Origin: a virus
Direction: 5' to 3' (one strand)
DNA length: 64,000 bases
IMG/VR virus record: IMGVR_UViG_3300017971_000214
Coordinates: 1-64,000 of that record
How positions within the stretch are numbered: position 1 is the stretch's first letter; the number at the start of each line of letters is the position of its first letter. Below the pieces are notes generated by a model. It was given only the letters and a program-made list of their open reading frames with translations, did no database searches and was not told where the DNA came from. The translations under genes were made by a program, and so were the position numbers. This document shows, one piece after another, positions 10,070 through 52,227 of the stretch.

Positions 10070-10109
10070 CACTACAATTGTTGACCGTGGACCGGGAGGC
10101 TGGTAAGGT
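10070..10109 (+). promoter_or_regulatory. CACTACAATTGTTGACC box fused to a sigma70 -35 (family member 1 of 6)
   Basis: TTGACC-17 bp-TAAGGT; the box recurs at 12360, 14214, 27683, 31356 and 41874. Confidence 0.75.
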
Positions 10110-12359: not shown

Positions 12360-12412
12360 CACTACAATTGTTGACTACCATGTTGACAATCATTGTCACT
12401 AGGTGATATGGT
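12360..12412 (+). promoter_or_regulatory. operator box plus sigma70 promoter of the RAMP-like operon
   Basis: CACTACAATTGTTGAC at 12360, TTGACA at 12383 and TATGGT at 12407. Confidence 0.7.
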
Positions 12413-12452
12413 CGTGGCATCTCTTCGGACGCTAGCAAAGGAGTAGCAAGAG

Positions 12453-13178
12453 ATGGCGCGAGCGAAGAAGCAAGAGAAGGTAGTCAAGATGTCGGACGTG
12501 TCGGTCCCGGTCATCACGGGGCGCACGGCGAAGGGCCGGGCACAGAAGGTCGACATCAACGTCCCGATCCCCGCCTACATCGAGCTGATGGTCCACGTGC
12601 GAGGAACGGAAGGCGGCGAGCTGCTGACCAACAAGCTGAACGACGACATCCTCAGCGACAACCCGGCGGAAGCGAAGCTGAAGAAGCAGCACCGGCTCCC
12701 AGCGGAGGTCTACGAGCGATCCAAGTACCTCGACGCCGAGGGCAACGACTGCATCCCCGGCGACAACTGGCGCCGATGCTTCGCCGATGCAGCCGTCACC
12801 ATGGACGGGGTGTCCAAAGCGAGCCTGCACCGCGAGATGGTGATCCTCGATGAGATGCCCCGCCTCGACTACAAGGACGTCTACATGCGGCGCGACATGG
12901 GTCGGGACTCGGGAGTGAACCGAGCGCCCCGCTTGATCTTCCGGGCGGCCTACCGTGGGTGGGAGTGCAAGATCCCAGTCCGCATCATGCTCAACGAGAC
13001 GACCTTCGAGCGCGCCGTCGCCCTGTTCAAGATGGCCGGGCTCTGCATCGGCATCGGGGACTGGAGACCCGGAGCACCCAAGGGGGGATCCAAGGGGACC
13101 TTCGACGTGGTGTCGGTGGAAGTCATCGGCGGCACGGTCACGATCAAGGAGCTGCAGGCGGAGCCCAAGGCTGCGTAG
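12453..13178 (+). CDS. RAMP/Cas7-like RNA-binding protein, candidate effector of the downstream periodic array
   Basis: N-terminal strand VHVRG..ELL, then Y..EG..CIPG.NWR.C..DAA, and a C-terminal glycine-rich loop AGLCIGIGDWRP....GSKGTFDV typical of RAMPs. Confidence 0.7.
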   Translation: MARAKKQEKVVKMSDVSVPVITGRTAKGRAQKVDINVPIPAYIELMVHVRGTEGGELLTNKLNDDILSDNPAEAKLKKQHRLPAEVYERSKYLDAEGNDCIPGDNWRRCFADAAVTMDGVSKASLHREMVILDEMPRLDYKDVYMRRDMGRDSGVNRAPRLIFRAAYRGWECKIPVRIMLNETTFERAVALFKMAGLCIGIGDWRPGAPKGGSKGTFDVVSVEVIGGTVTIKELQAEPKAA

Positions 13179-13186
13179 GGTGCGCC

Positions 13187-13678
13187 ATGGCGAAGAAGAA
13201 ACGCCTCCTGTACGTCCCGGCCGCCAAAAGCGGGATCTCCGAGGAAGAGGCGCAGGTGTGGGGCGAGGAGCTGACCAAGTTCACGGGCAACCCCAAAGAC
13301 CTCGGGGCCAATGCCGAAGAGGTCTACGATGCCGTGAAGGCCGACCCCTCGCACCCGCTGCACCCTTTGATCTTCTACGTCTCCCAAAAGGAGGCGGCCA
13401 GACGCCACTACATCGAGCACATCCGCAAGTGTTCGCGCAGCATTCAGGTTCAGTACCGGCCCCCGCACAAGCCGAACAACGTGGTGCTCACCCGAGCCTT
13501 CCACAACGTCGGCGGCGACTACTACCGGCTCGATGACGTGATGAAGAGCGACGAGCTGCGGGCTCGGGTGGTGGCCACGGCGGCGGCAGAGGCACGGGCA
13601 TGGGCGAAGAAGTACCGCCTCTACAAAGAACTTGCAGGACTGGCCGACACCATCGACCAGTATTTGGATCAACTTTGA
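13187..13678 (+). CDS. helical accessory protein between the RAMP-like gene and the array
   Basis: Co-operonic 163 aa ORF; its stop codon abuts the first array unit. Confidence 0.75.
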   Translation: MAKKKRLLYVPAAKSGISEEEAQVWGEELTKFTGNPKDLGANAEEVYDAVKADPSHPLHPLIFYVSQKEAARRHYIEHIRKCSRSIQVQYRPPHKPNNVVLTRAFHNVGGDYYRLDDVMKSDELRARVVATAAAEARAWAKKYRLYKELAGLADTIDQYLDQL

Positions 13679-14212
13679 GTGGAACGGTAGGGAACGGTTG
13701 GGCCGTGCGTGGCTTTGCCCCGCCCGGCTTGGACCGGCAATGCGAGGAGCCCCGTCGCGGTGTGATGCTGCCGCGGGGCACCAAACCAAGCGTCACCGGG
13801 ATCGGCTGTGAATGGCATCGTTCGGCCGCGTTCGGTAAGGCTCGGCCCGGCAATGCAAGGAGTCCTATCACGGATGATCTCTGTCGTAGGACGCCAAACG
13901 GTGCGGAACGGAAGGGCCGTGCAGCGCACGACCGCGTTCGGCAGCGCCCCGCTGCGTGCGGTTCGGTGGGGCAATGCAAGGAGTCCTATCACGGATGATC
14001 TCTGTCGTCGGTCGCTATTCGGAAAGGCTGTCCCGAACGGCAGCGCTGGGCACCGCATGGCAGGGCAGCGCAAGGAGCCTGGTCGCGGATGATCTCTGCC
14101 GCTAGGCACTACTCCCTCGGAGTGGAGAGGCACGTCCTCGTAGCGCTAGGCATAACCCGGCGCGGCTTGACAAAGCACGGAGCCCCATCACGGCGGAAGC
14201 TGTCGTGGGGCG
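13679..14212 (+). ncRNA. five-unit array of pentamer-periodic (mostly GGY-NN/NGY-NN) tracts, each followed by GGAG and a hairpin; candidate guide-RNA array
   Basis: Tracts at 13681-13745, 13789-13858, 13900-13979, 14021-14073 and 14119-14178. Hairpins at 13750-13778, 13863-13891, 13984-14012, 14078-14106 and 14183-14210. Confidence 0.8.
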
Positions 14213-14213
14213 C

Positions 14214-14253
14214 CACTACAATTGTTGACCATAGTGGGGCTAGGTGATAGGGT
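14214..14253 (+). promoter_or_regulatory. CACTACAATTGTTGACC box promoter
   Basis: TTGACC-17 bp-TAGGGT. Confidence 0.7.
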
Positions 14254-27721: not shown

Positions 27722-30468
27722 GGGAGCGGTCCAACGAGCGGGCGGAGTAGGAGAGACCATGGCGAACGAGCGGCCCGGCGCGCCGGAGACGGGGCTGACC
27801 CCTGAGCAGAAACGGGGGTGTGCGTGGGCTCTTCTGCTAGGAATCATCGGGGTCATCATATTCGGGCTCTACCTCATAGAACGCGATGACCGGCACGACT
27901 GTGAGATCCGGTCCTGCGTGGAAGGGAGAACGCCGAGGCTCATCGACGGGGTGTGCATCTGCGTAGTTCTGCCGGGAGGGGAGCGATGAAAGATCCTTCT
28001 CCTTGGGGTCCGTTCGAGTACTGGCGCAAGGGCTCCACGCCGAAGGGCTACGTCTGTTCGGTCTGCGGAGACTCTGGTGTGCGGCTATGGCGGCAGTCGA
28101 ATACGATCGCTTCCTGCATCGAACTGATGTGTCGCGGCTGTGCTCTGAAGAACCAGACGGGCAAGGGGCACATGCAGGGGCTAGAAGGGATCAAGACGGA
28201 CTGCATCGGATGGCTCGTCCCCGCTGTACCCACCGAGGAAGGCAACACCTTCTGGGGCTATACGTCGGTCCCTCCGTCTGGTGTCAAATGGTGGTACAGC
28301 CTACCGAGTTGGGAGGGAGCTGGGGCATGACGGGAGCCGAGAAAAAGCTGGTCTACTTCCTGACCCTCTACGCTGACGGGCTCTGCACGCGCGACGAATT
28401 GGTGACGCAGCTCGCGATGCTCCCTCCGAGCGTCTTGGCGCTGGTCCCTGACAACGGGCGGCAGCCCCGCGACGACTTCCCCGGCATCCGCCCCGACGCT
28501 GAGAAATTGCGGGAGCAGATCAAAGACTCCTCCGTCACCATCATGAGCAGCAGCGGCCACTTCTACACCGCGGCCGACTTGCAGGACGACGAACCATGAG
28601 CAGTGATCTCTTCGACGCCGAAGACCACAAGGGCATCTCCATCGACTTGGAGATGAACGTCCACAACACCTTGTTCCTGACGGCGCTGGGAAAAGAGGAG
28701 CGGGACTACGGGGAGCGCGGCGAGGAGATGGTGACGTTCACCTTCCGCCCTGATGAGAAGGGGATCGAGCAGGCTCGCGGGATGCGCGATGCGTTGGACA
28801 AATGGGCACGGCATGCGGGGGGAGTGGAGATCCAAACGAACATGCCGCCCAAGTTGAAGGCAGTGCTCGACGCGCTGTACGAATGGCGTGACAGTCTTCC
28901 TGCTGTTCCTGGGGATGCTACCGATGGCGTGGCTGGGAAGCTCATTCACGCTACGGATGAGTGGAGGTCAATCGGATGAGTACCTACAGAGATGCAGCGT
29001 CTGAGGCGCAAGCCAAGACGCAGGTGATGATGCTGGAGCTGATGCAAGCGATGACCAAAGCGTCGCTGGCTTTTCAGGGAGACGACTTGGCCGAAGCTGC
29101 CATGAGCATGCGCGACGCTGCTGGGGCGCTGAAGAAGCTAGCAGCCGAGTTCGACAAGACGGCCGACGAGATCCAAGAGGAGATCAGCAAGAACCAGAAG
29201 GACCGCTGATGGACCGCTGCGACACCGAGGTGTTCGAAAAGGGGGAGCCTTTGCTACTCGCTTCCACCGGGGAGACGGGGGGCAACAAGCTGTTCGAGGC
29301 TTGGGTTCAGCGTGTGGCCCGTGTGTCAGGCCAACGTGTGGACTGGCACTACTCGGGGGGCATCGCGCAGGTGCTGACCCTCGGGGACCTGGAGCAAGCG
29401 GGCGTCGCCGCGCGCAGCCTGGAAAGCGAGCTGCCTGAGGGTCAAAGGATCATGCGCTGGTTCGTCTCCGGCGAAGCCGGCGCGTATCGTAGGGGCGTGA
29501 CCGAGGAGCCGGAAGGCGCCATCGCCGGGTTCACCGATCTGAACGGGGAGCAGCAGTTCCTGGTGAAAGCTGAGGACTGATGCGGAAGCTCGATTCGTTC
29601 GACAAGAAGATGGTGATCGGCATCGCCATCGGAATCGCGATGGTAGCGGTTTCGATCTACATGCGTTGCGGGATGCATCAGGAGTGCCAGGAGAAGAGCT
29701 GCCCCGAAGGTCACGTTCCGGCCCGAGTCGACGAGCGCTGCGTATGCTTGTTGGAGGCAAAGTGACGATCTACGTGGACGAGACCGGTCATGTGTGGGAG
29801 GAGCGTTGCTTTCCTCCCCCCTTGGATTGGAAACCGGGCAACGTCATCAAGGTGCGCGGAGCCCGCTTCTCCATCGTCAGCATCCACCGCGAGCTGTCGC
29901 CTTACCCGCGGGAGCCCAAGAACAAGGTGGTGATTCGTGGGGTGGATTAGGCGTGCCCTCCAAGTGCTCTGGGACTGGTTCGCTCCTGCGTCTCCGGACG
30001 ACGAGTACACCATCCGGCAGGGCGTCCGGGTTCCCGCCTGCTGCGAATGTGGCGTGGAGGTGAAGAACTTCAAGGATCGCAACGTAGTGGACCTGACGGA
30101 GCCGGGTGACGTGGACAAGCGCGTCGTGCGGTTCGGTTTGATCTGTGACTCCTGCTTGGAAGTCAGAGGGAAGGTAGACGGTTCGGGCTGAAGGTACGAT
30201 CTGGTGTTGGAGAGGTTAGCCGCATGCTCGTGCGACGGAGAGGTTGATTGCATGATTCATGATCTCGTAAGCGAGCTGGTCGCGCGCCTTCGCGCGAATG
30301 AAGGTGCCAGCGCAGAAAACTTGGTCCAGAGGCTCGAACGCGAAGCCAAGGAGTTCGTCTGTCCTGTGTGTGGGGTAGGCACAGACGATCCCTTCGTGGG
30401 GTTGGTGGAGGAGCCCCAAGCCAAAGTCATTTTCTACTGCCCTGCGTGCAACGATTTGGGGAGCAGCG

Positions 30469-38799: not shown

Positions 38800-40424
38800 G
38801 TGAAAGTGCCAAGCACCAGTGGGAGCATCTGAGCACGTCCATCGAGAAGAAGTACGTGTCCTGGTGCCACAAGTGCGGGGCGGTCAGGGTAAAAGCGCTG
38901 AAGATCGACACGGATAAGGCATCGTCGCACTACGTCACTTGGTACTACGCGATGGGGACCAAGGCCGCGCTGAAGCACTCTCCGCCTTGCTACCCCGTAG
39001 AGCTGCACAAGGAGTGCCAGGGGCTCGCCGTCGCGCTGGAGACCGCCATCGAGAAGCTGGAGAAGGCTGAGTCCGACAACGCCTTCCTGCGCAACGAGCT
39101 GAAGGAGCTGATGCCGCCGCTATGAGAGACTTGCAGATCAGATTCCACTGGGACCCGATGCCTTGGGAGAGGCAGCGCGACCGAGGAGAACGCCTGGTGA
39201 CCTGGCACCGCGTGCCCCGAACTGGGGACTTGGTGAATCTCATTCTCCAGAACGAGGACTCTCAGGGGACCCTGGCGACGTTCGAGGTCAAGCATGTGCT
39301 CTGGAACGCTGACGGGCTAGACGGATCTCAAATCCACATCTTGCTGCACTCCACAGGACACACCTACGGCGTCTGAGCGCGGCCCGAGCTGGCGGTTCGC
39401 GAGGGCGCTGGAAAACTCCCGCCTCCGAAGTTTGCCGCGCTCCGCGCCGAGCTGCCGCCTGTTGACTATCGCGCTGCTATGCGATACTGTCACGACATGG
39501 AATGCGCGCACTGCGGGAGCAAGGAGGGGGTCGAGCTGGAGTCCTCGCGGACGGCCTACCCGAAGAAAGAGGAAGAGCCTGATCCCAACGCCCCCATTCC
39601 ACTGTGCCGCAAGTGTGCCAAAGAGCATCATGAGTATTGGAACGAGATGTGGCTGAACGCGATGCCAGAGATTTGATCCTATGCGACCGTGAAGGTTGTG
39701 AGGAGCCGGCAACCCGAATGTTCATACAGGGGCCTCCGAGCAAACGCCGGTTCACATGCAACCCCTGCGGCGAGAACAACGAAGTGCTGTTCGCCGAAGG
39801 CAGCGTAGGCAATGCTCCGCTGCGGGAGTGCTCGATATGCGAGGCTCTGAAAGCGATTCGAAGACAGGCATGGAAGCTGGGGCTGATCTCGCAGCAGCGC
39901 TACGCGACCCTCTGCCGTTGGCATCCGGAGTGGTGATGAGTCTACCTGCCCTATCCGCTGTTCTGCGCAACCTTCGCAACGACGGGGAGCACGCGCTAGC
40001 CGGCCGCATCGAGCGCGAAGCGGACCGATGGCAATGTCCGACGTGCACCTTCCGATCAAACCCCGGCTTCGAGTTCGCGGGGCCGCCGCCGGCCACCGAG
40101 GACGAGCCCATCGCCGTGTTCCACTGCCCGTTCTGTTCGCCCGAAAGGGTGCGAGTCGATGATGGTCCTGAAGATCCTAGCTAGGTGGATCATACGCAAC
40201 GAGCTGGCGGAGCTAAGAGGTACTGCCGCCATGACTCGGAGGTTCTTCCACTCGTGGCGTTCGGGCGCGCGGCTGTGGGAGCGGTACGCCCACTACTTGG
40301 AAGAGAAGTACGACTTGGACGAGGACTTCAACGACTTCTTTTGGACACTCTCTTCCGAAGAGCGCAGGGACCCGGCGTCTTCGGACTACGTACCAGGGTT
40401 CACACCAAGGAGAAGCGAGAGAAA

Positions 40425-41453
40425 GTGAACGACAAGATCAAAGGTTCGATCGTTGGGCTCGCCTGCGGCGATGCTCTGGGGGCTCCCGTGGAGTTCCTGA
40501 ATCAGACGGAGCTGATCACTCGGTACGGCTCGGACGGTATCAGAGATCTCGAAGAGTCCTACGGAGTGGAGGGCGCGTACACCGACGACACGCAGATGAC
40601 CCTCTCAACTGCGGAGGGTGTCGTGGCGGCACGTACTGCAGAGGGGGATGGCATCAACGTCGACCCGGTGCCCTACATCTACGGGGCTTACATCGAGTGG
40701 CGCCGGGGCCAGCTCGACCACGCCAACAATCGCGGGCCGGGCAACACCTGCCTGAGTGCCCTTTCCGGGGGCGTAGCGGGGTCCTCAGCAGCCCCGGTGA
40801 ACAACAGCAAGGGTTGCGGTGGGGTCATGCGCGTCGCCCCTGTGGGGCTCGTCTACAGCGGTACACGGGCTTGGAAGTACGGGCTCGAAAGCGCCGCGTT
40901 GACGCACGGGCATGAGGGGGGATTCTTGCCAGCAGCCTTCCAGGCGCTGATGCTATCCAGAATCATGTCCGCGCCGGAGAAGGAAGCGCCGGCCAAGACG
41001 ATCACGGAGGCTGTGGGGGCGGCGATGAACATGCTCGAACGCTCCCCGAGAAGCGAAGACCGCGACACCTTCGCGGCGATGGTCACGCAGGCAATGAACT
41101 TGCACCGGCAGACCAAGTGGTCCGACGAGATGGTGCTGCGGAAGCTCGGCGCCGGATGGGTAGGCGATGAAGCATTGGCCATGTCGATCTTCTGCGCCAT
41201 GCGCTACCCCAACAGCTTCGAAGGCGCAGTCACCTCCGCGGTCAACTACTCCGGAGACCGGGACTCGGTGGGGTGCATCACGGGCGCCATCATGGGGGCG
41301 CTGCTGGGCTACTCTTCGATACCTGAACGCTGGGCGGCCAAGGTCGAGAACTACGACCTGCTCGTGTCCGTAGCCGAACAGCTCTCCGAAGCGCGCATCG
41401 AGCCCCCGCGTCGCCCTCAACCCCATCCTCCAAAGACGGTAGGCATCGACTAG
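40425..41453 (+). CDS. ADP-ribosylglycohydrolase (DraG/ARH family)
   Basis: GLACGDALGAPVEF, YTDDTQMT, SKGCGGVMRVAP, ALTHGH and GDRDSVGCITGA motifs. Confidence 0.92.
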   Translation: MNDKIKGSIVGLACGDALGAPVEFLNQTELITRYGSDGIRDLEESYGVEGAYTDDTQMTLSTAEGVVAARTAEGDGINVDPVPYIYGAYIEWRRGQLDHANNRGPGNTCLSALSGGVAGSSAAPVNNSKGCGGVMRVAPVGLVYSGTRAWKYGLESAALTHGHEGGFLPAAFQALMLSRIMSAPEKEAPAKTITEAVGAAMNMLERSPRSEDRDTFAAMVTQAMNLHRQTKWSDEMVLRKLGAGWVGDEALAMSIFCAMRYPNSFEGAVTSAVNYSGDRDSVGCITGAIMGALLGYSSIPERWAAKVENYDLLVSVAEQLSEARIEPPRRPQPHPPKTVGID

Positions 41454-47287: not shown

Positions 47288-50071
47288 ATGGGACGAAAAG
47301 CATGGGCGAATCGGCGGAGCGGAACCTGCGAGGCGTGCGGCACTTCGGTGGCGGCGCAGGCCGGCTGGGTGTACCGGGACGATGCGGGTTCCTGGAAGGT
47401 GTGCTGCAAGAGCGCGGTGTGCGGGACGCAGCTCGGCCTCGCTGGGGCGGCCCCCGAGGCGGCGGAGACGCGGGAGCTGACGGCGGACGGTCGCGTACTG
47501 ATGCCCTACGAGAAAGCAGCGCTCCCCTTGCTGCGGGCGATGCCGGGCGCGCGGTTCGACCGTGACGCCTCCCCGAAGTGTTGGCGCGTGTCACTGGATC
47601 CCGGTGACCGGGACCGGCTCTTGGAGCTAGCGGACGAGCTGAAGCTCGCCGTGGCCCCCGAGCTGCGCACCGTGTCGGAGGACATCGAAGCGTTGTCCAA
47701 GCAGCTCATCGCGGACGGCCTGTACCCCTTCCAGGTGAAGGGCGTGTGTTGGTTGCGGCAGCGACGCCGCGCGTTGCTCGGCGACTCGATGGGACTAGGA
47801 AAAACCATCCAAGTCTTGTTTGCCCTACCCCATCCAAAGGGGTACGGTAAGAATCATGCCGAGAGGAGTGTATCCGAGAACGTCAAATCAGCTCAGAGCC
47901 GCCAAGGAGAATCTAGCCAAGGGGCGGCAGCCGAATGCTCGGCGAAAAGCAAAAGCGACGATGCGGAAGACAGCTCAGACGCCGGAGTGGCGCGCAAAGG
48001 TAAGCGAGGCCACGCGTCGTGCGATGCAGCGTCCCGAAGTGCGAGAGAAGCATCTCAAAGGTCTGAAGGGGAATCCAGTAGGATTCAAGGGGGGAAACGG
48101 ACAGCCTCCAGTTCCGATAGTCGAGTTGGCGGCCATTTTTCTGGAGCCTCTGGGGTTCGTGAGGGAGCTACCAATACGGACGAAAGGCCACGGAACGGAG
48201 TTGCGAGCACCGACACACTACAAGGCAGATTTAGGCCAGCCGGAACTGAAGATCGTAGTGGAACTGGACGGTCCGAGTCATTGGAACAAGCGCCAGCAGG
48301 ACAAGGATCGGAAGAAGACCGAAATCCTGGAAGCACTGGGTTGGACGGTGATCCGCATCCAGCACGGGCGATCGTCATCTGCCCGGCGAGTCTCAAGCTG
48401 AACTGGCGCGACGAGTGCAAGCGGTGGCGTCCGGGCCTGAAGCCTGTCGTGCTCTCGGGTCGCGGCAGCTTCCGGCACCCCGAAGCTGGAGAGGTCATCA
48501 TCACGAACTACGACATCTTGCCGAAGCTACCCCGCTGCACCTGCAAGGCGCACGGTCAGCTGAAGTACGTATCGGGCACCTGGGAGTGGGTGTGCGAGAA
48601 GTGCTCCAAGAAGAGCAACGCCACGGTGACCATCAAGGCCGACCCCGTGCTCGACCTCTCGGGCAAGGGGATCGTCGTGGTCGCCGACGAGTCCACCGCG
48701 GTCAAGAACTTCAAGGCCATCCGGTCCAAGGTCTTCAAGGCGCTCGCCGTCACCGCCGACAAGGTGTGGCAGCTGTCGGGCACCCCGATGCTCAACCGCC
48801 CGTTTGACCTCTACGGGATGCTCCAGTCCGGAGACATGGCCTACGAGGTGTTCGGTGGCTGGAGGTCCTTCCTCCGCTGCTTCAACGGCTACAAGAACCG
48901 GTGGGGCGGCTACGAGTTCGGCGAGCCTCTTCCCGAGACCCCTGAGCGCCTGCGCCGTGTGATGCTGCGCCGGCTCAAGACCGAGGTGCTGACTGATCTC
49001 CCTGAGGTCACCTACCAGACCCTCACCGTCAACAGTCTCGACAAGGGCCTGAAGGCGGAGCTGGACGCCGCGTGGAGCGCCTGGAACGACGAGGCCGAAG
49101 CACTCGACGGGCTCGCCGATGGTGCCCCCGCAGACCTTCCTCCCTTCGAGCAGTTCTCGAAGCTGCGCGCGAAGCTCGCTGCCAGCCGCATCAACGCGAT
49201 GCTTGATCTGGTCGAGCAGTACGAGGACAACGAGCAGCCGCTCATCGTCTTCTCCGCGCATCGCGCCCCCATCGACACCTTGGCCAAGCGCGAGGGGTGG
49301 GCCGTCATCACCGGCGACACCAACGCTGAGGCCCGCAACGAGGCCGTCAAGCGCTTCCAGAGCGGCGAGCTGAAGGGCATCGGCCTGACCATCAAGGCCG
49401 GCGGCTACGGGCTCACGCTGACCCGCGGCAGCCACCTTCTGTTCGTCGACCTCGAATGGACCCCCTCCGCCAACGCGCAGGCAGAGGACCGGGCTCGTCG
49501 TATCGGGCAGACCGCCGACTCGATTCAGGTCACCCGCATGGTCTCCGACCACCCGCTCGACCAGCACGTCCTACGGCTTCTCGCTGAGAAGACCGCCATG
49601 ATCTTCAAGGCTGTCGAAGCCGAGGTGCAGTACAAGCGGGCGCCCAAGCCCAAAACCGCCCAGCCCAGCGGTTGGGTGCAGGAGAGCGACGCGGACCAGC
49701 AGGCGCGCAAGGATGCCATCGAGCAGGCCGCCAAGGAGGCCGAGAAGGCTCAGGCGCAGAAGCGCATCGACAAGATCATCCTCCAGGAAAAGGACCGTCA
49801 GGGCACCGCTCCGGGCGAGACCTTGGAGCTGACCTCCGAAGTCCGCCAGGCTCTCACCGATGCCTTCTACTTCATGAAGAGCGTCTGCGATGGCGCGCAG
49901 GAGAAGGACGGCCAAGGGTTCTCCAAGCCCGACGTCTACCGCACCGCGTTCCTCGCATCGTGGATGGACACCGGAGAGGAGACCGCGTTCCGCGCGGCGG
50001 CCATGATCCTCTGCCGCTACAGGCGGCAGCTCGGCAAGCAGTTCCCCATCCTTTTCAAGAAGGCGGCTTGA
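47288..50071 (+). CDS. SNF2/HARP-like helicase with a 175-codon in-frame insertion
   Basis: LYPFQ, DSMGLGKT, VICPASLKLNW, ADES, LSGTPMLN, GYGLTL and QAEDRARRIGQ motifs. Confidence 0.9.
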   Translation: MGRKAWANRRSGTCEACGTSVAAQAGWVYRDDAGSWKVCCKSAVCGTQLGLAGAAPEAAETRELTADGRVLMPYEKAALPLLRAMPGARFDRDASPKCWRVSLDPGDRDRLLELADELKLAVAPELRTVSEDIEALSKQLIADGLYPFQVKGVCWLRQRRRALLGDSMGLGKTIQVLFALPHPKGYGKNHAERSVSENVKSAQSRQGESSQGAAAECSAKSKSDDAEDSSDAGVARKGKRGHASCDAASRSAREASQRSEGESSRIQGGKRTASSSDSRVGGHFSGASGVREGATNTDERPRNGVASTDTLQGRFRPAGTEDRSGTGRSESLEQAPAGQGSEEDRNPGSTGLDGDPHPARAIVICPASLKLNWRDECKRWRPGLKPVVLSGRGSFRHPEAGEVIITNYDILPKLPRCTCKAHGQLKYVSGTWEWVCEKCSKKSNATVTIKADPVLDLSGKGIVVVADESTAVKNFKAIRSKVFKALAVTADKVWQLSGTPMLNRPFDLYGMLQSGDMAYEVFGGWRSFLRCFNGYKNRWGGYEFGEPLPETPERLRRVMLRRLKTEVLTDLPEVTYQTLTVNSLDKGLKAELDAAWSAWNDEAEALDGLADGAPADLPPFEQFSKLRAKLAASRINAMLDLVEQYEDNEQPLIVFSAHRAPIDTLAKREGWAVITGDTNAEARNEAVKRFQSGELKGIGLTIKAGGYGLTLTRGSHLLFVDLEWTPSANAQAEDRARRIGQTADSIQVTRMVSDHPLDQHVLRLLAEKTAMIFKAVEAEVQYKRAPKPKTAQPSGWVQESDADQQARKDAIEQAAKEAEKAQAQKRIDKIILQEKDRQGTAPGETLELTSEVRQALTDAFYFMKSVCDGAQEKDGQGFSKPDVYRTAFLASWMDTGEETAFRAAAMILCRYRRQLGKQFPILFKKAA
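47856..48401 (+). mobile_element. nested +1-frame DUF559/Vsr-like putative homing endonuclease
   Basis: Basic helical N-terminus followed by YKADL...VVELDGPSH...D.KK...L...GWTVIRI. Confidence 0.8.
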
Positions 50072-51462: not shown

Positions 51463-52227
51463 ATGAAGCCCGGAAGGCCGCCGAAACATGGGCATGCGAA
51501 GACTGGGTTCAGGACTTCTGAGTACGTCGCTTGGGTGAGCATGATCTCTAGGTGCGTCAACCCGTCGCACAAGAGCTTTGGCCTCTATGGAGGTCGTGGC
51601 ATACGTGTTTGCGCCAGATGGTTGGATTCGTTCTCCAACTTCCTTGCGGACATGGGAGTGAAACCAGACCCGTCGTGTTCTGTAGATCGCATAGACCCCG
51701 AAGGGGATTACGAGCCACGCAACTGTCGTTGGGCCACCCCGAAGCAGCAAGCCAGGAACAGGAGAAATACGACGTTCCTTACTTCAGAAGGGACAACGAA
51801 GTCTTTGATGGACTGGGCTGAAGAACTGGGTGTTTCTGCAACTGCTATTCGGGAGCGGCTGCGCCGAGGTTGGTCAGACGAAGAGGCGTTGAGTACGCCT
51901 TTCAAGCCTAGGCTAACGAAGGGGACCGTACTCGCCATCTGCAAAGAGTACGATCTAGGGGGTGTGACGATCACAGACCTAGCAACACGGCACGCCACCA
52001 ACCCTTCTACAGTGCAGGCCATTTTGAGCGGGCGGCAGTGGGGGGACGTGACGGGAAGAACGTACACGCCGGTGGTGGGGAGAAAGAAGCCAGTCCTGCT
52101 GAAGCGCGGGGAATCACTTATCACCAAGATCCGAAGGATGATTGATCGAGGTATGTCCCAGCGGGCTGTGGCGCGCGAGCTGGGAACGTCACACACGACG
52201 ATAGCGCGCATTCTTGAGGAGGACTGA
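51463..52227 (+). mobile_element. free-standing HNH-type homing endonuclease with C-terminal HTHs
   Basis: W.SM..RC...YGGRGI.VC.RW...F..DMG...SVDRID..G.YEP.NCRWAT..QQARN; lower GC than its neighbours. Confidence 0.8.

Follow-up and report, generated by a model that had tools for sequence, protein, structure and literature searches.

A probable VIPR system with an array of pentamer repeats in an uncultured large phage

Introduction

Which kind of system is formed when a gene for a small RAMP-like protein is followed, on the genome of a large phage, by a partner gene and a non-coding array of pentamers? The question is raised by a locus close to the start of the IMG/VR virus record IMGVR_UViG_3300017971_000214, the first 64 kb of which (64,000 nucleotides out of 126,260 bp) constitute the window analysed here and provide the coordinates used throughout. 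A preliminary description drawn from the letters of the window had read the locus as a candidate non-CRISPR RNA-guided system, had suspected its resemblance to the recently reported viral VIPR systems and had raised the possibility of its being novel.

VIPR (Viral Interference Programmable Repeat) was first described in 2026 as a CRISPR-like, RNA-guided DNA silencer of viruses, according to three bioRxiv preprints (10.64898/2026.04.26.720920, 10.64898/2026.04.26.720927 and 10.64898/2026.10.15.759431). As set out there, the system comprises the protein Vipr, a vap gene and vrRNAs of 9–16 GGY/NN repeats with a structured tail; it reads double-stranded DNA with one base skipped per variable dinucleotide (NN), silences the transcription of competing phages and satellites, and is divided into seven types; the published systems number 667. 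The scheme that the preliminary description had proposed, with a RAMP-like subunit on each pentamer, hairpins as handles and dinucleotides spelling a gapped target, is matched by the published system. Its suspicion of VIPR was well founded in view of the Vipr homology, the conserved residues and the periodic arrays of relatives reported below, and the non-CRISPR RNA-guided reading is supported by the same Vipr-family protein with its conserved G-loop and thumb residues and by the arrays of its relatives. The possible novelty has to be given up, the system being already in print in the three preprints. We therefore regard the locus, with high confidence, as a complete VIPR system on an uncultured phage and as a member of a published kind, and it opens no new question because the mechanism and biology of VIPR are already in print.

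The layout is minimal and of a non-CRISPR kind, consisting of vipr and one accessory gene without cas genes or a CRISPR array. Both genes are as the preliminary description had them: the vipr gene (ORF1, the first open reading frame; 12453–13178, plus strand, 241 aa), which is preceded by an AAGGAG ribosome site and assigned to the Vipr family by profile, hhalign and residue alignment, and an accessory gene in the vap position (ORF2; 13187–13678, plus strand, 163 aa, family unnamed), which starts 9 nt past the vipr stop. The 537 non-coding bases after ORF2 hold the array (13679–14215) with its five units. The statement that cas1 and canonical CRISPR repeats are absent also holds, in that Cas1 (PF01867) found no match anywhere in the 126,260-bp record and no CRISPR-like repeat family was found in the window; the Pfam RAMP family (PF03787) was likewise without a match anywhere in the record.

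The Vipr protein

The identity of the 241-aa protein, which ends in ...AGLCIGIGDWRPGAPKGGSKGTFDV, was established by profile comparison. No match was found in Pfam, NCBIfam or PADLOC, and in PHROGs the protein falls into an unnamed family (phrog_4652, E 2e-6). An exhaustive HMMER search recovered 898 representative clusters at E <= 0.001, the closest at 47% identity. When a profile of 128 family members was compared with the PDB, the sole significant match was the Vipr of SUSP1, an Escherichia phage with a type II VIPR (36pp_D, E 3.6e-18, covering chain residues 3–193 of 202), the next match standing at E 0.47. Alignment by hhalign against SUSP1 gp039 gave a probability of 98.9% (E 3.5e-17) over 173 columns. 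On these alignments, the 241-aa protein is identified as a homologue of SUSP1 Vipr. The preliminary description had asked for a comparison with Cas7, Csm3 and Cmr4; none of the 128 family members matched a RAMP or Cas family at E <= 0.1, and Vipr is the one solved relative of significance.

The cryo-EM preprint on SUSP1 Vipr contacts (10.64898/2026.04.26.720927) assigns H17 and D177 to the first repeat base G1, R138 and W178 to G2, and R179 to Y3. The residues of the window protein at the positions of H17, D177, R138, W178 and R179 are N, D, R, W and R, with R164, D203, W204 and R205 aligning with SUSP1 R138, D177, W178 and R179, respectively. The G-loop AGLCIGIGDWRP and R164 align with the SUSP1 G-loop and the thumb arginine R138, and a RAMP architecture of RRM core, G-loop and thumb may be expected for the protein.

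Word-index protein searches returned nothing beyond the proteins themselves, the closest relative (P0002, at the 47% identity mentioned above) was not found in viral_contigs or metagenome_contigs, and a search of genome_contigs for related loci, made with a narrower alignment, found none. In a tblastn comparison, the Vipr protein was weakly matched (E 5e-4 to 6e-4) by 'hypothetical protein' genes of cultured actinophages, namely Gordonia phage Ecliptus (OP820472.1, 10347–10964) and the Mycobacterium phages Saal (NC_023580.1, 37111–37566), Quico (NC_028751.1, 37827–38282) and Florinda (NC_028889.1, 38007–38462); judging from sequence similarity, these may be unannotated Vipr genes.

The pentamer array and its tails

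The array reads as five putative vrRNA units on the plus strand, each a run of pentamers followed by a tail of GGAG plus a hairpin. Unit 1 (13681–13782) has 13 pentamers (13681–13745) and a tail at 13746–13782; unit 2 (13799–13895) has 12 in-phase pentamers (13799–13858) and a tail at 13859–13895; unit 3 (13900–14016) has 16 pentamers (13900–13979) and a tail at 13980–14016; unit 4 (14034–14110) has 8 pentamers (14034–14073) and a tail at 14074–14110; and unit 5 (14119–14214) has 12 more degenerate pentamers (14119–14178) and a tail at 14179–14214. The tail starts at 13746, 13859, 13980, 14074 and 14179 are thus spaced by 113, 121, 94 and 105 nt. The transcription, processing and ends of the vrRNA units are suggested by this layout.

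When 70 pentamers were read backwards in 5-nt steps from the five tails, position 1 was G in 39, C in 18, T in 9 and A in 4; position 2 was G in 59 of the 70, position 3 was C or T in 56 of the 70, and positions 4 and 5 were mixed over the same set. The repeat is a fixed B-G-Y triplet followed by a variable NN. The periodicity of the array is 5 and not 3, because the autocorrelation of G peaks at lags 5, 10 and 15 (0.22, 0.34 and 0.18) and not at lag 3 (-0.05). None of 1000 dinucleotide-preserving shuffles matched the observed 9 out of 10 in-phase G-Y units, and all windows of the record with at least 8 out of 10 such units, both strands having been scanned, fall within the array.

The tails share a consensus fold with 14 predicted pairs, 6 of which show compensatory changes on both sides. 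The hairpin is present in the minimum-energy fold of four of the five whole units; that of unit 3 is missing from the single-sequence minimum-energy fold and present in the consensus fold. A search of the array against Rfam gave no match. The last two pentamers before the tail (GGCAA TGCAA) are nearly constant, and they are therefore likely to serve as handle and not as guide; we take them to be probably part of the handle.

The preliminary description had rendered unit 1 in letters identical to our reading and had described five pentamer units, each ending in GGAG plus a related hairpin. This picture is borne out, with a periodicity beyond chance and covarying hairpin pairs. Its range of 10–16 pentamers per unit holds for units 1, 2, 3 and 5 and has to be corrected for unit 4, with unit 5 being more degenerate than the others.

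Related loci

It had also been proposed that homologues be examined for downstream arrays with a 5-nt period. Sixteen IMG/VR loci were found to encode relatives at 24–32% identity, and with a tract defined as at least 6 out of 8 in-phase GG, tracts on the strand of the gene flank it in 12 of the 16 viral loci, with none on the opposite strand in any of the 16. One of the four loci without a tract is cut by the contig end 270 nt into the gene. As a positive control, the identical scan recovered the vrRNAs of SUSP1, one of them upstream and three downstream. The relatives thus do not lack periodic arrays, the outcome that would have told against the preliminary description.

A variant arrangement was observed in some of these relatives. 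At L002:2600-2919 and 4244-4701, and also in L003 and L005–L009, there are long arrays with GGCAG at the close of each unit. The final G of this pentamer is also the first base of the following unit, which moves the phase by one base, and hairpin tails are absent. The arrangement matches the 'staggered arrays' named in the legend of fig. S18 of the VIPR preprint (10.64898/2026.04.26.720920). These staggered GGC-NN loci resemble the present one in their Vipr homologues (26% identity), their arrays on the strand of the gene and a partner gene of 154–170 aa that appears related to ORF2 (hhalign 68.6%). They differ from it in the GGCAG unit ends with a direct run into the next unit and no hairpin tail, in carrying arrays on both sides of the genes, and in having G at position 1 in 91–100% of units.

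Comparison with SUSP1

The closest described counterpart for a detailed comparison is SUSP1, in which (NC_028808.2) vipr lies at 28474–29061, vap1 at 28031–28471 and the intergenic array measures 530 nt; the SUSP1 arrays were shown to be RNAs (10.64898/2026.04.26.720920). Both systems are phage-borne and consist of vipr, a small partner gene and, downstream of them on the same strand, an array of about 530 nt. The small Vipr proteins are homologous by profile, with the thumb Arg and the D-W-R of the G-loop conserved, and the vrRNA units, which are predicted here, are about 100 nt long with 5-nt repeats followed by a structured tail. The candidate target discussed below would also be alike, since it lies in a recombinase of a mobile element and the skip falls on the wobble base.

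There are also several differences. The window protein is longer (241 aa versus 195); its N-terminus is extended, and a GAPKGGS insert follows the G-loop. At position 1 of the repeat, G accounts for 56% of units, C for 27% and T for 18%, as against 76% G in SUSP1, and position 3 is mostly C here and T in SUSP1. The tail is a plain hairpin after GGCAA-TGCAA-GGAG, whereas that of SUSP1 is a pseudoknot (none was searched for here); no vrRNA lies upstream of vipr, in contrast to the one in SUSP1; and no similarity to vap1 was detected in the partner gene. As far as sequence comparison goes, the locus fits the published description of VIPR and is assigned to the VIPR family, not to one of its types.

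Guide targets

Skip rules of 0, 1 and 2 were tested on the phage's own genome, the collections were scanned with exact seeds of 1-nt skip, and the shuffled-guide controls cover the own genome and 40 kb around the integrase gene described below. No guide matches the genome of its own phage above the level of shuffled guides with a skip of 0, 1 or 2. For the published VIPR systems, the corresponding preprint likewise reports no self-targets (10.64898/2026.04.26.720920).

A candidate target emerged for guide 1. Its first 11 NN (22 fixed bases) have an exact match in three Gluconobacter genomes, all in one orthologous gene, and the 12th NN also matches while the 13th does not, giving 24 of 26 positions. 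By the author's estimate, about 0.07–0.1 chance matches for this seed would be expected in the 596 Gb searched. The site lies inside an ORF of 283 aa with matches to Phage_integrase (PF00589, 98.6 bits) and to PHROG integrases. On the coding strand, guide 1 spells F-G-K-G-G-K-T-R-H-V-L-V and skips the third base of each codon; since this is the wobble base, guide 1 could read this peptide-coding stretch of the integrase despite synonymous drift. The GKGGKTR stretch presumably belongs to a beta-hairpin motif, conserved among tyrosine recombinases, on which the catalytic lysine is located. When up to 3 mismatches are allowed, guide 1 finds 43 places in 38 of the 401 genomes of that bacterial family, as against 4 for the reversed control. 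Of 12 near-match loci that were retrieved, 8 proved to be PF00589 ORFs read in the same frame, the other 4 being without a family. NN 2–11 of guide 1 gave 0 matches in viral_contigs.

The Gluconobacter region itself (L040:8620-19712, on G002:C1) is a prophage and occupies the same orthologous place in the three genomes. Genes near the integrase include a small terminase, a CII-like activator, a DNA methyltransferase and several PHROG families.

For guide 3, the last 9 variable NN gave 4 matches in viral_contigs, where the other 14 positions agree 2–6 times, and NN 5–14 gave 12 matches in metagenome_contigs, where the first four NN agree at 1–5 of 8 positions and the translations on either side are unrelated. 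When all 14 variable NN were sought and up to 3 mismatches tolerated, 0 of 121 genomes sampled from the phylum of G002 had a match. Guide 4, being short, was scanned on the own genome and around the integrase only. As a candidate only, guide 1 is proposed from its agreement with the Gluconobacter site to be aimed at a tyrosine integrase gene of a prophage or satellite, on the conserved stretch that codes for GKGGKTR. That the match reflects real anti-integrase targeting is considered rather probable, at some distance from certainty.

Weighing the evidence

A number of observations tell against the assignment or against its candidate target, and they are best considered together. The single 241-aa sequence, when compared with SUSP1 Vipr, reaches just E 0.056. 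Only 25 of the 45 called units have G at position 1 of the repeat. The link of ORF2 to other partner genes is just moderate (hhalign 68.6%), and with SUSP1 vap1 ORF2 has no similarity (BLASTP E 0.41 over 15 residues). Guides 2 and 5 (10 NN each) gave 0 matches in viral_contigs, the seeds of guide 3 are chance-like throughout, and guides 2–5 do not rise above shuffled guides on the 40 kb around the Gluconobacter integrase gene. The evidence for the proposed target comes from a single orthologous gene of a single genus, and this genus is not known to be the host.

The alternative that survives best leaves the VIPR assignment intact and holds that the integrase match of guide 1 is a coincidence, the real targets of the five guides lying outside the searched collections. 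There is one independent exact locus in one genus, the final NN is mismatched and no other guide converges on that prophage; moreover, the metagenome runs holding the phage are labelled sediment, seawater and wetland, which are not known as typical habitats of Gluconobacter. The low chance expectation estimated above argues against coincidence, as do the excess of near-matches over the reversed control (43 versus 4) and the 8 integrase ORFs among the 12 fetched. A recombinase target with a wobble-base skip is, furthermore, the pattern published for SUSP1 guides in two preprints (10.64898/2026.10.15.759431 and 10.64898/2026.04.26.720920). Coincidence is accordingly a serious possibility that we judge to fall short of probable.

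It could be argued instead that the locus is a degenerate or orphan CRISPR-Cas remnant, in which a leftover gene of Cas7 or Csm3 type accompanies a decayed CRISPR array. Vipr proteins are indeed RAMP relatives according to the VIPR preprint (10.64898/2026.04.26.720920), and a glycine-rich loop is present in the 241-aa protein. The Cas7 filaments of class 1 CRISPR-Cas, in the published account of VIPR, share with it a subunit per fixed RNA period, thumb-induced base flipping and a glycine-rich loop. However, the record is devoid of Pfam RAMP and Cas1 matches, the 128 relatives gave no RAMP or Cas match at the threshold stated above, the repeats are of 5 nt without a repeat-spacer structure of 25–40 nt, and the sole significant solved relative is a Vipr. 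Class 1 systems differ further from the present locus, which has no cas genes, CRISPR repeats, adaptation module or Pfam RAMP match, and the VIPR period of 5 nt with 2 informative bases differs from the 6 nt with 5 of Cas7. The locus is not a member of class 1 CRISPR-Cas, and its being a remnant of CRISPR-Cas is regarded as highly improbable.

Just as improbable is the proposal that the array codes for protein (ORFs 13600–13998 on the plus strand and 13669–14133 on the minus strand) or is a DNA repeat bound by protein, iterons being an example. It is true that open frames of 132 and 154 aa overlap it, spurious ones being common at the 62% G+C of the record, but the period is 5 with no signal at 3, the third-position G+C of the minus-strand ORF is 0.65 as against mostly 0.75–0.9 in the genes of the record, compensatory changes preserve an RNA hairpin in the tails, and strand-specific arrays also flank the Vipr genes of 12 of the 16 relatives and of SUSP1.

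Position 1 of the repeat

The relaxed position 1 deserves separate attention. G occupies this position in 41 of 54 SUSP1 units and in 82–100% of units in the 12 relatives with called tracts, except for L004 (6 of 9). Despite this relaxation, the window protein retains D203, the counterpart of the G1-binding D177. An explanation through N60, which stands in place of SUSP1 H17, was entertained and fails, as the GG-strict relatives L002–L017 also have N. Ten relatives were aligned for this comparison, and in the 7 with called tracts G at position 1 ranges from 67% (L004) to 96%; L011, L012 and L017 have no called tract on the strand of the gene. Variant forms of the repeat consensus, including a YNNNG type, are described in the VIPR preprint (10.64898/2026.04.26.720920).

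Proposed mechanism and significance

Taking the locus as a VIPR system, a course of action can be outlined. A promoter at about 12383 would drive a single transcript of vipr, the accessory gene and the array, as their layout suggests, and this transcript would be cut into five vrRNAs of roughly 95–120 nt. If the analogy with the solved SUSP1 structures is followed, each 5-nt repeat would be occupied by one Vipr protomer, which would sequester the fixed B-G-Y triplet and present the two variable bases, while the hairpin tail would cap the 3' end of the vrRNA. The resulting filament, on the same analogy, would pair its NN with double-stranded DNA, skipping every third target base, and the pairing would silence the transcription of a competing mobile element.

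In SUSP1, VIPR silences the excision recombinase of a satellite via codon periodicity, as reported in the latest preprint (10.64898/2026.10.15.759431). We put forward tentatively, and as less probable than not, that guide 1 is a family-level anti-recombinase guide that, by skipping the wobble base, reads the code for (F)GKGGKTRHVLV within the catalytic domain of tyrosine integrases despite synonymous drift. With it, a lytic-looking phage could shut down an integrase or excisionase belonging to prophages or satellites already resident in the cell. We put forward, as a separate part of the same conjecture, that this clade of Vipr tolerates C/U at position 1 with the G1-binding Asp kept. If the integrase target is true, it would extend the targeting of competitors' essential recombinases by codon periodicity to a distant phage lineage, and a C/U-tolerant position 1, if true, would mean a repeat-recognition pocket unlike that solved for SUSP1.

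With this locus, a family that was described only in 2026 gains an environmental example of high G+C from a large phage. Its relaxed position 1, simple hairpin tail and different accessory gene could help to define the essential features of vrRNA recognition.

The partner gene

ORF2 matches PHROG 15946 (E 3e-5), has no match in Pfam, NCBIfam or PADLOC, and occurs in the ESM Atlas among unnamed viral clusters only. A gene of 154–170 aa is found at the equivalent position in most relatives, and a profile of seven of these partner genes aligned with ORF2 by hhalign at the probability given above (E 4.6e-5) over 111 columns. Against SUSP1 vap1, the same partner-gene profile reached an hhalign probability of 0.03%. 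Six vap families are listed in the VIPR preprint (10.64898/2026.04.26.720920). By its position, ORF2 is taken as an accessory gene of the vap kind, and on sequence it lacks the vap1 by which type II is recognised.

Putative promoter boxes

Upstream of vipr lies a putative promoter region (12360–12412, plus strand) in which a putative phage-specific box, CACTACAATTGTTGAC, is followed by a sigma-70-like site, TTGACA-18-TATGGT (12383–12412). This 16-nt box includes a TTGAC element resembling a -35 and, with up to 2 mismatches allowed, has 7 copies in the record, on the plus strand only, at window positions 10070, 12360, 14214, 25293, 27683, 31356 and 41874. The set probably serves as phage-specific promoters or operators of one temporal gene class. 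The copy at 14214 (14214–14250, plus strand) abuts the last tail and marks the end of the cassette; it probably starts the next transcription unit. The VIPR cassette is thus bracketed by two copies of the box, which looks like a phage-specific promoter element.

Genome and environmental context

The host of the locus is an uncultured large phage of at least 126 kb, with a G+C content of 61.7% in the record and a completeness estimated by CheckV at 68%. The sequencing runs listed as containing this DNA include none of RNA. Contigs from four DNA runs aligned to the locus carry the same sequence, without variant arrays. Run X2 spans the entire locus and, being possibly the source sample of this very record, does not count as independent, and the three other runs (wetland or sediment metagenomes) each cover 7–14 of 30 bins with contigs of 151–152 nt. 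One contig of X3, one of these three runs, has a C>T change at window position 13925 at a depth of 2, which may be an error; it hits position 1 of a pentamer (CGCAC to TGCAC), a semi-variable scaffold position.

Among 28 larger ORFs of the window scanned against PHROGs, 15 were without a match and 6 more matched only families of unknown function. The named matches included a nicotinamide phosphoribosyltransferase-like gene, an ADP-ribosylglycohydrolase, a large DNA helicase and an HNH endonuclease, these four lying within window coordinates 7492–8661, 40185–41450, 47288–50068 and 51463–52224. The closest phage relatives of the helicase are found in Thermus and Caulobacter phages, at 25–31% identity only.

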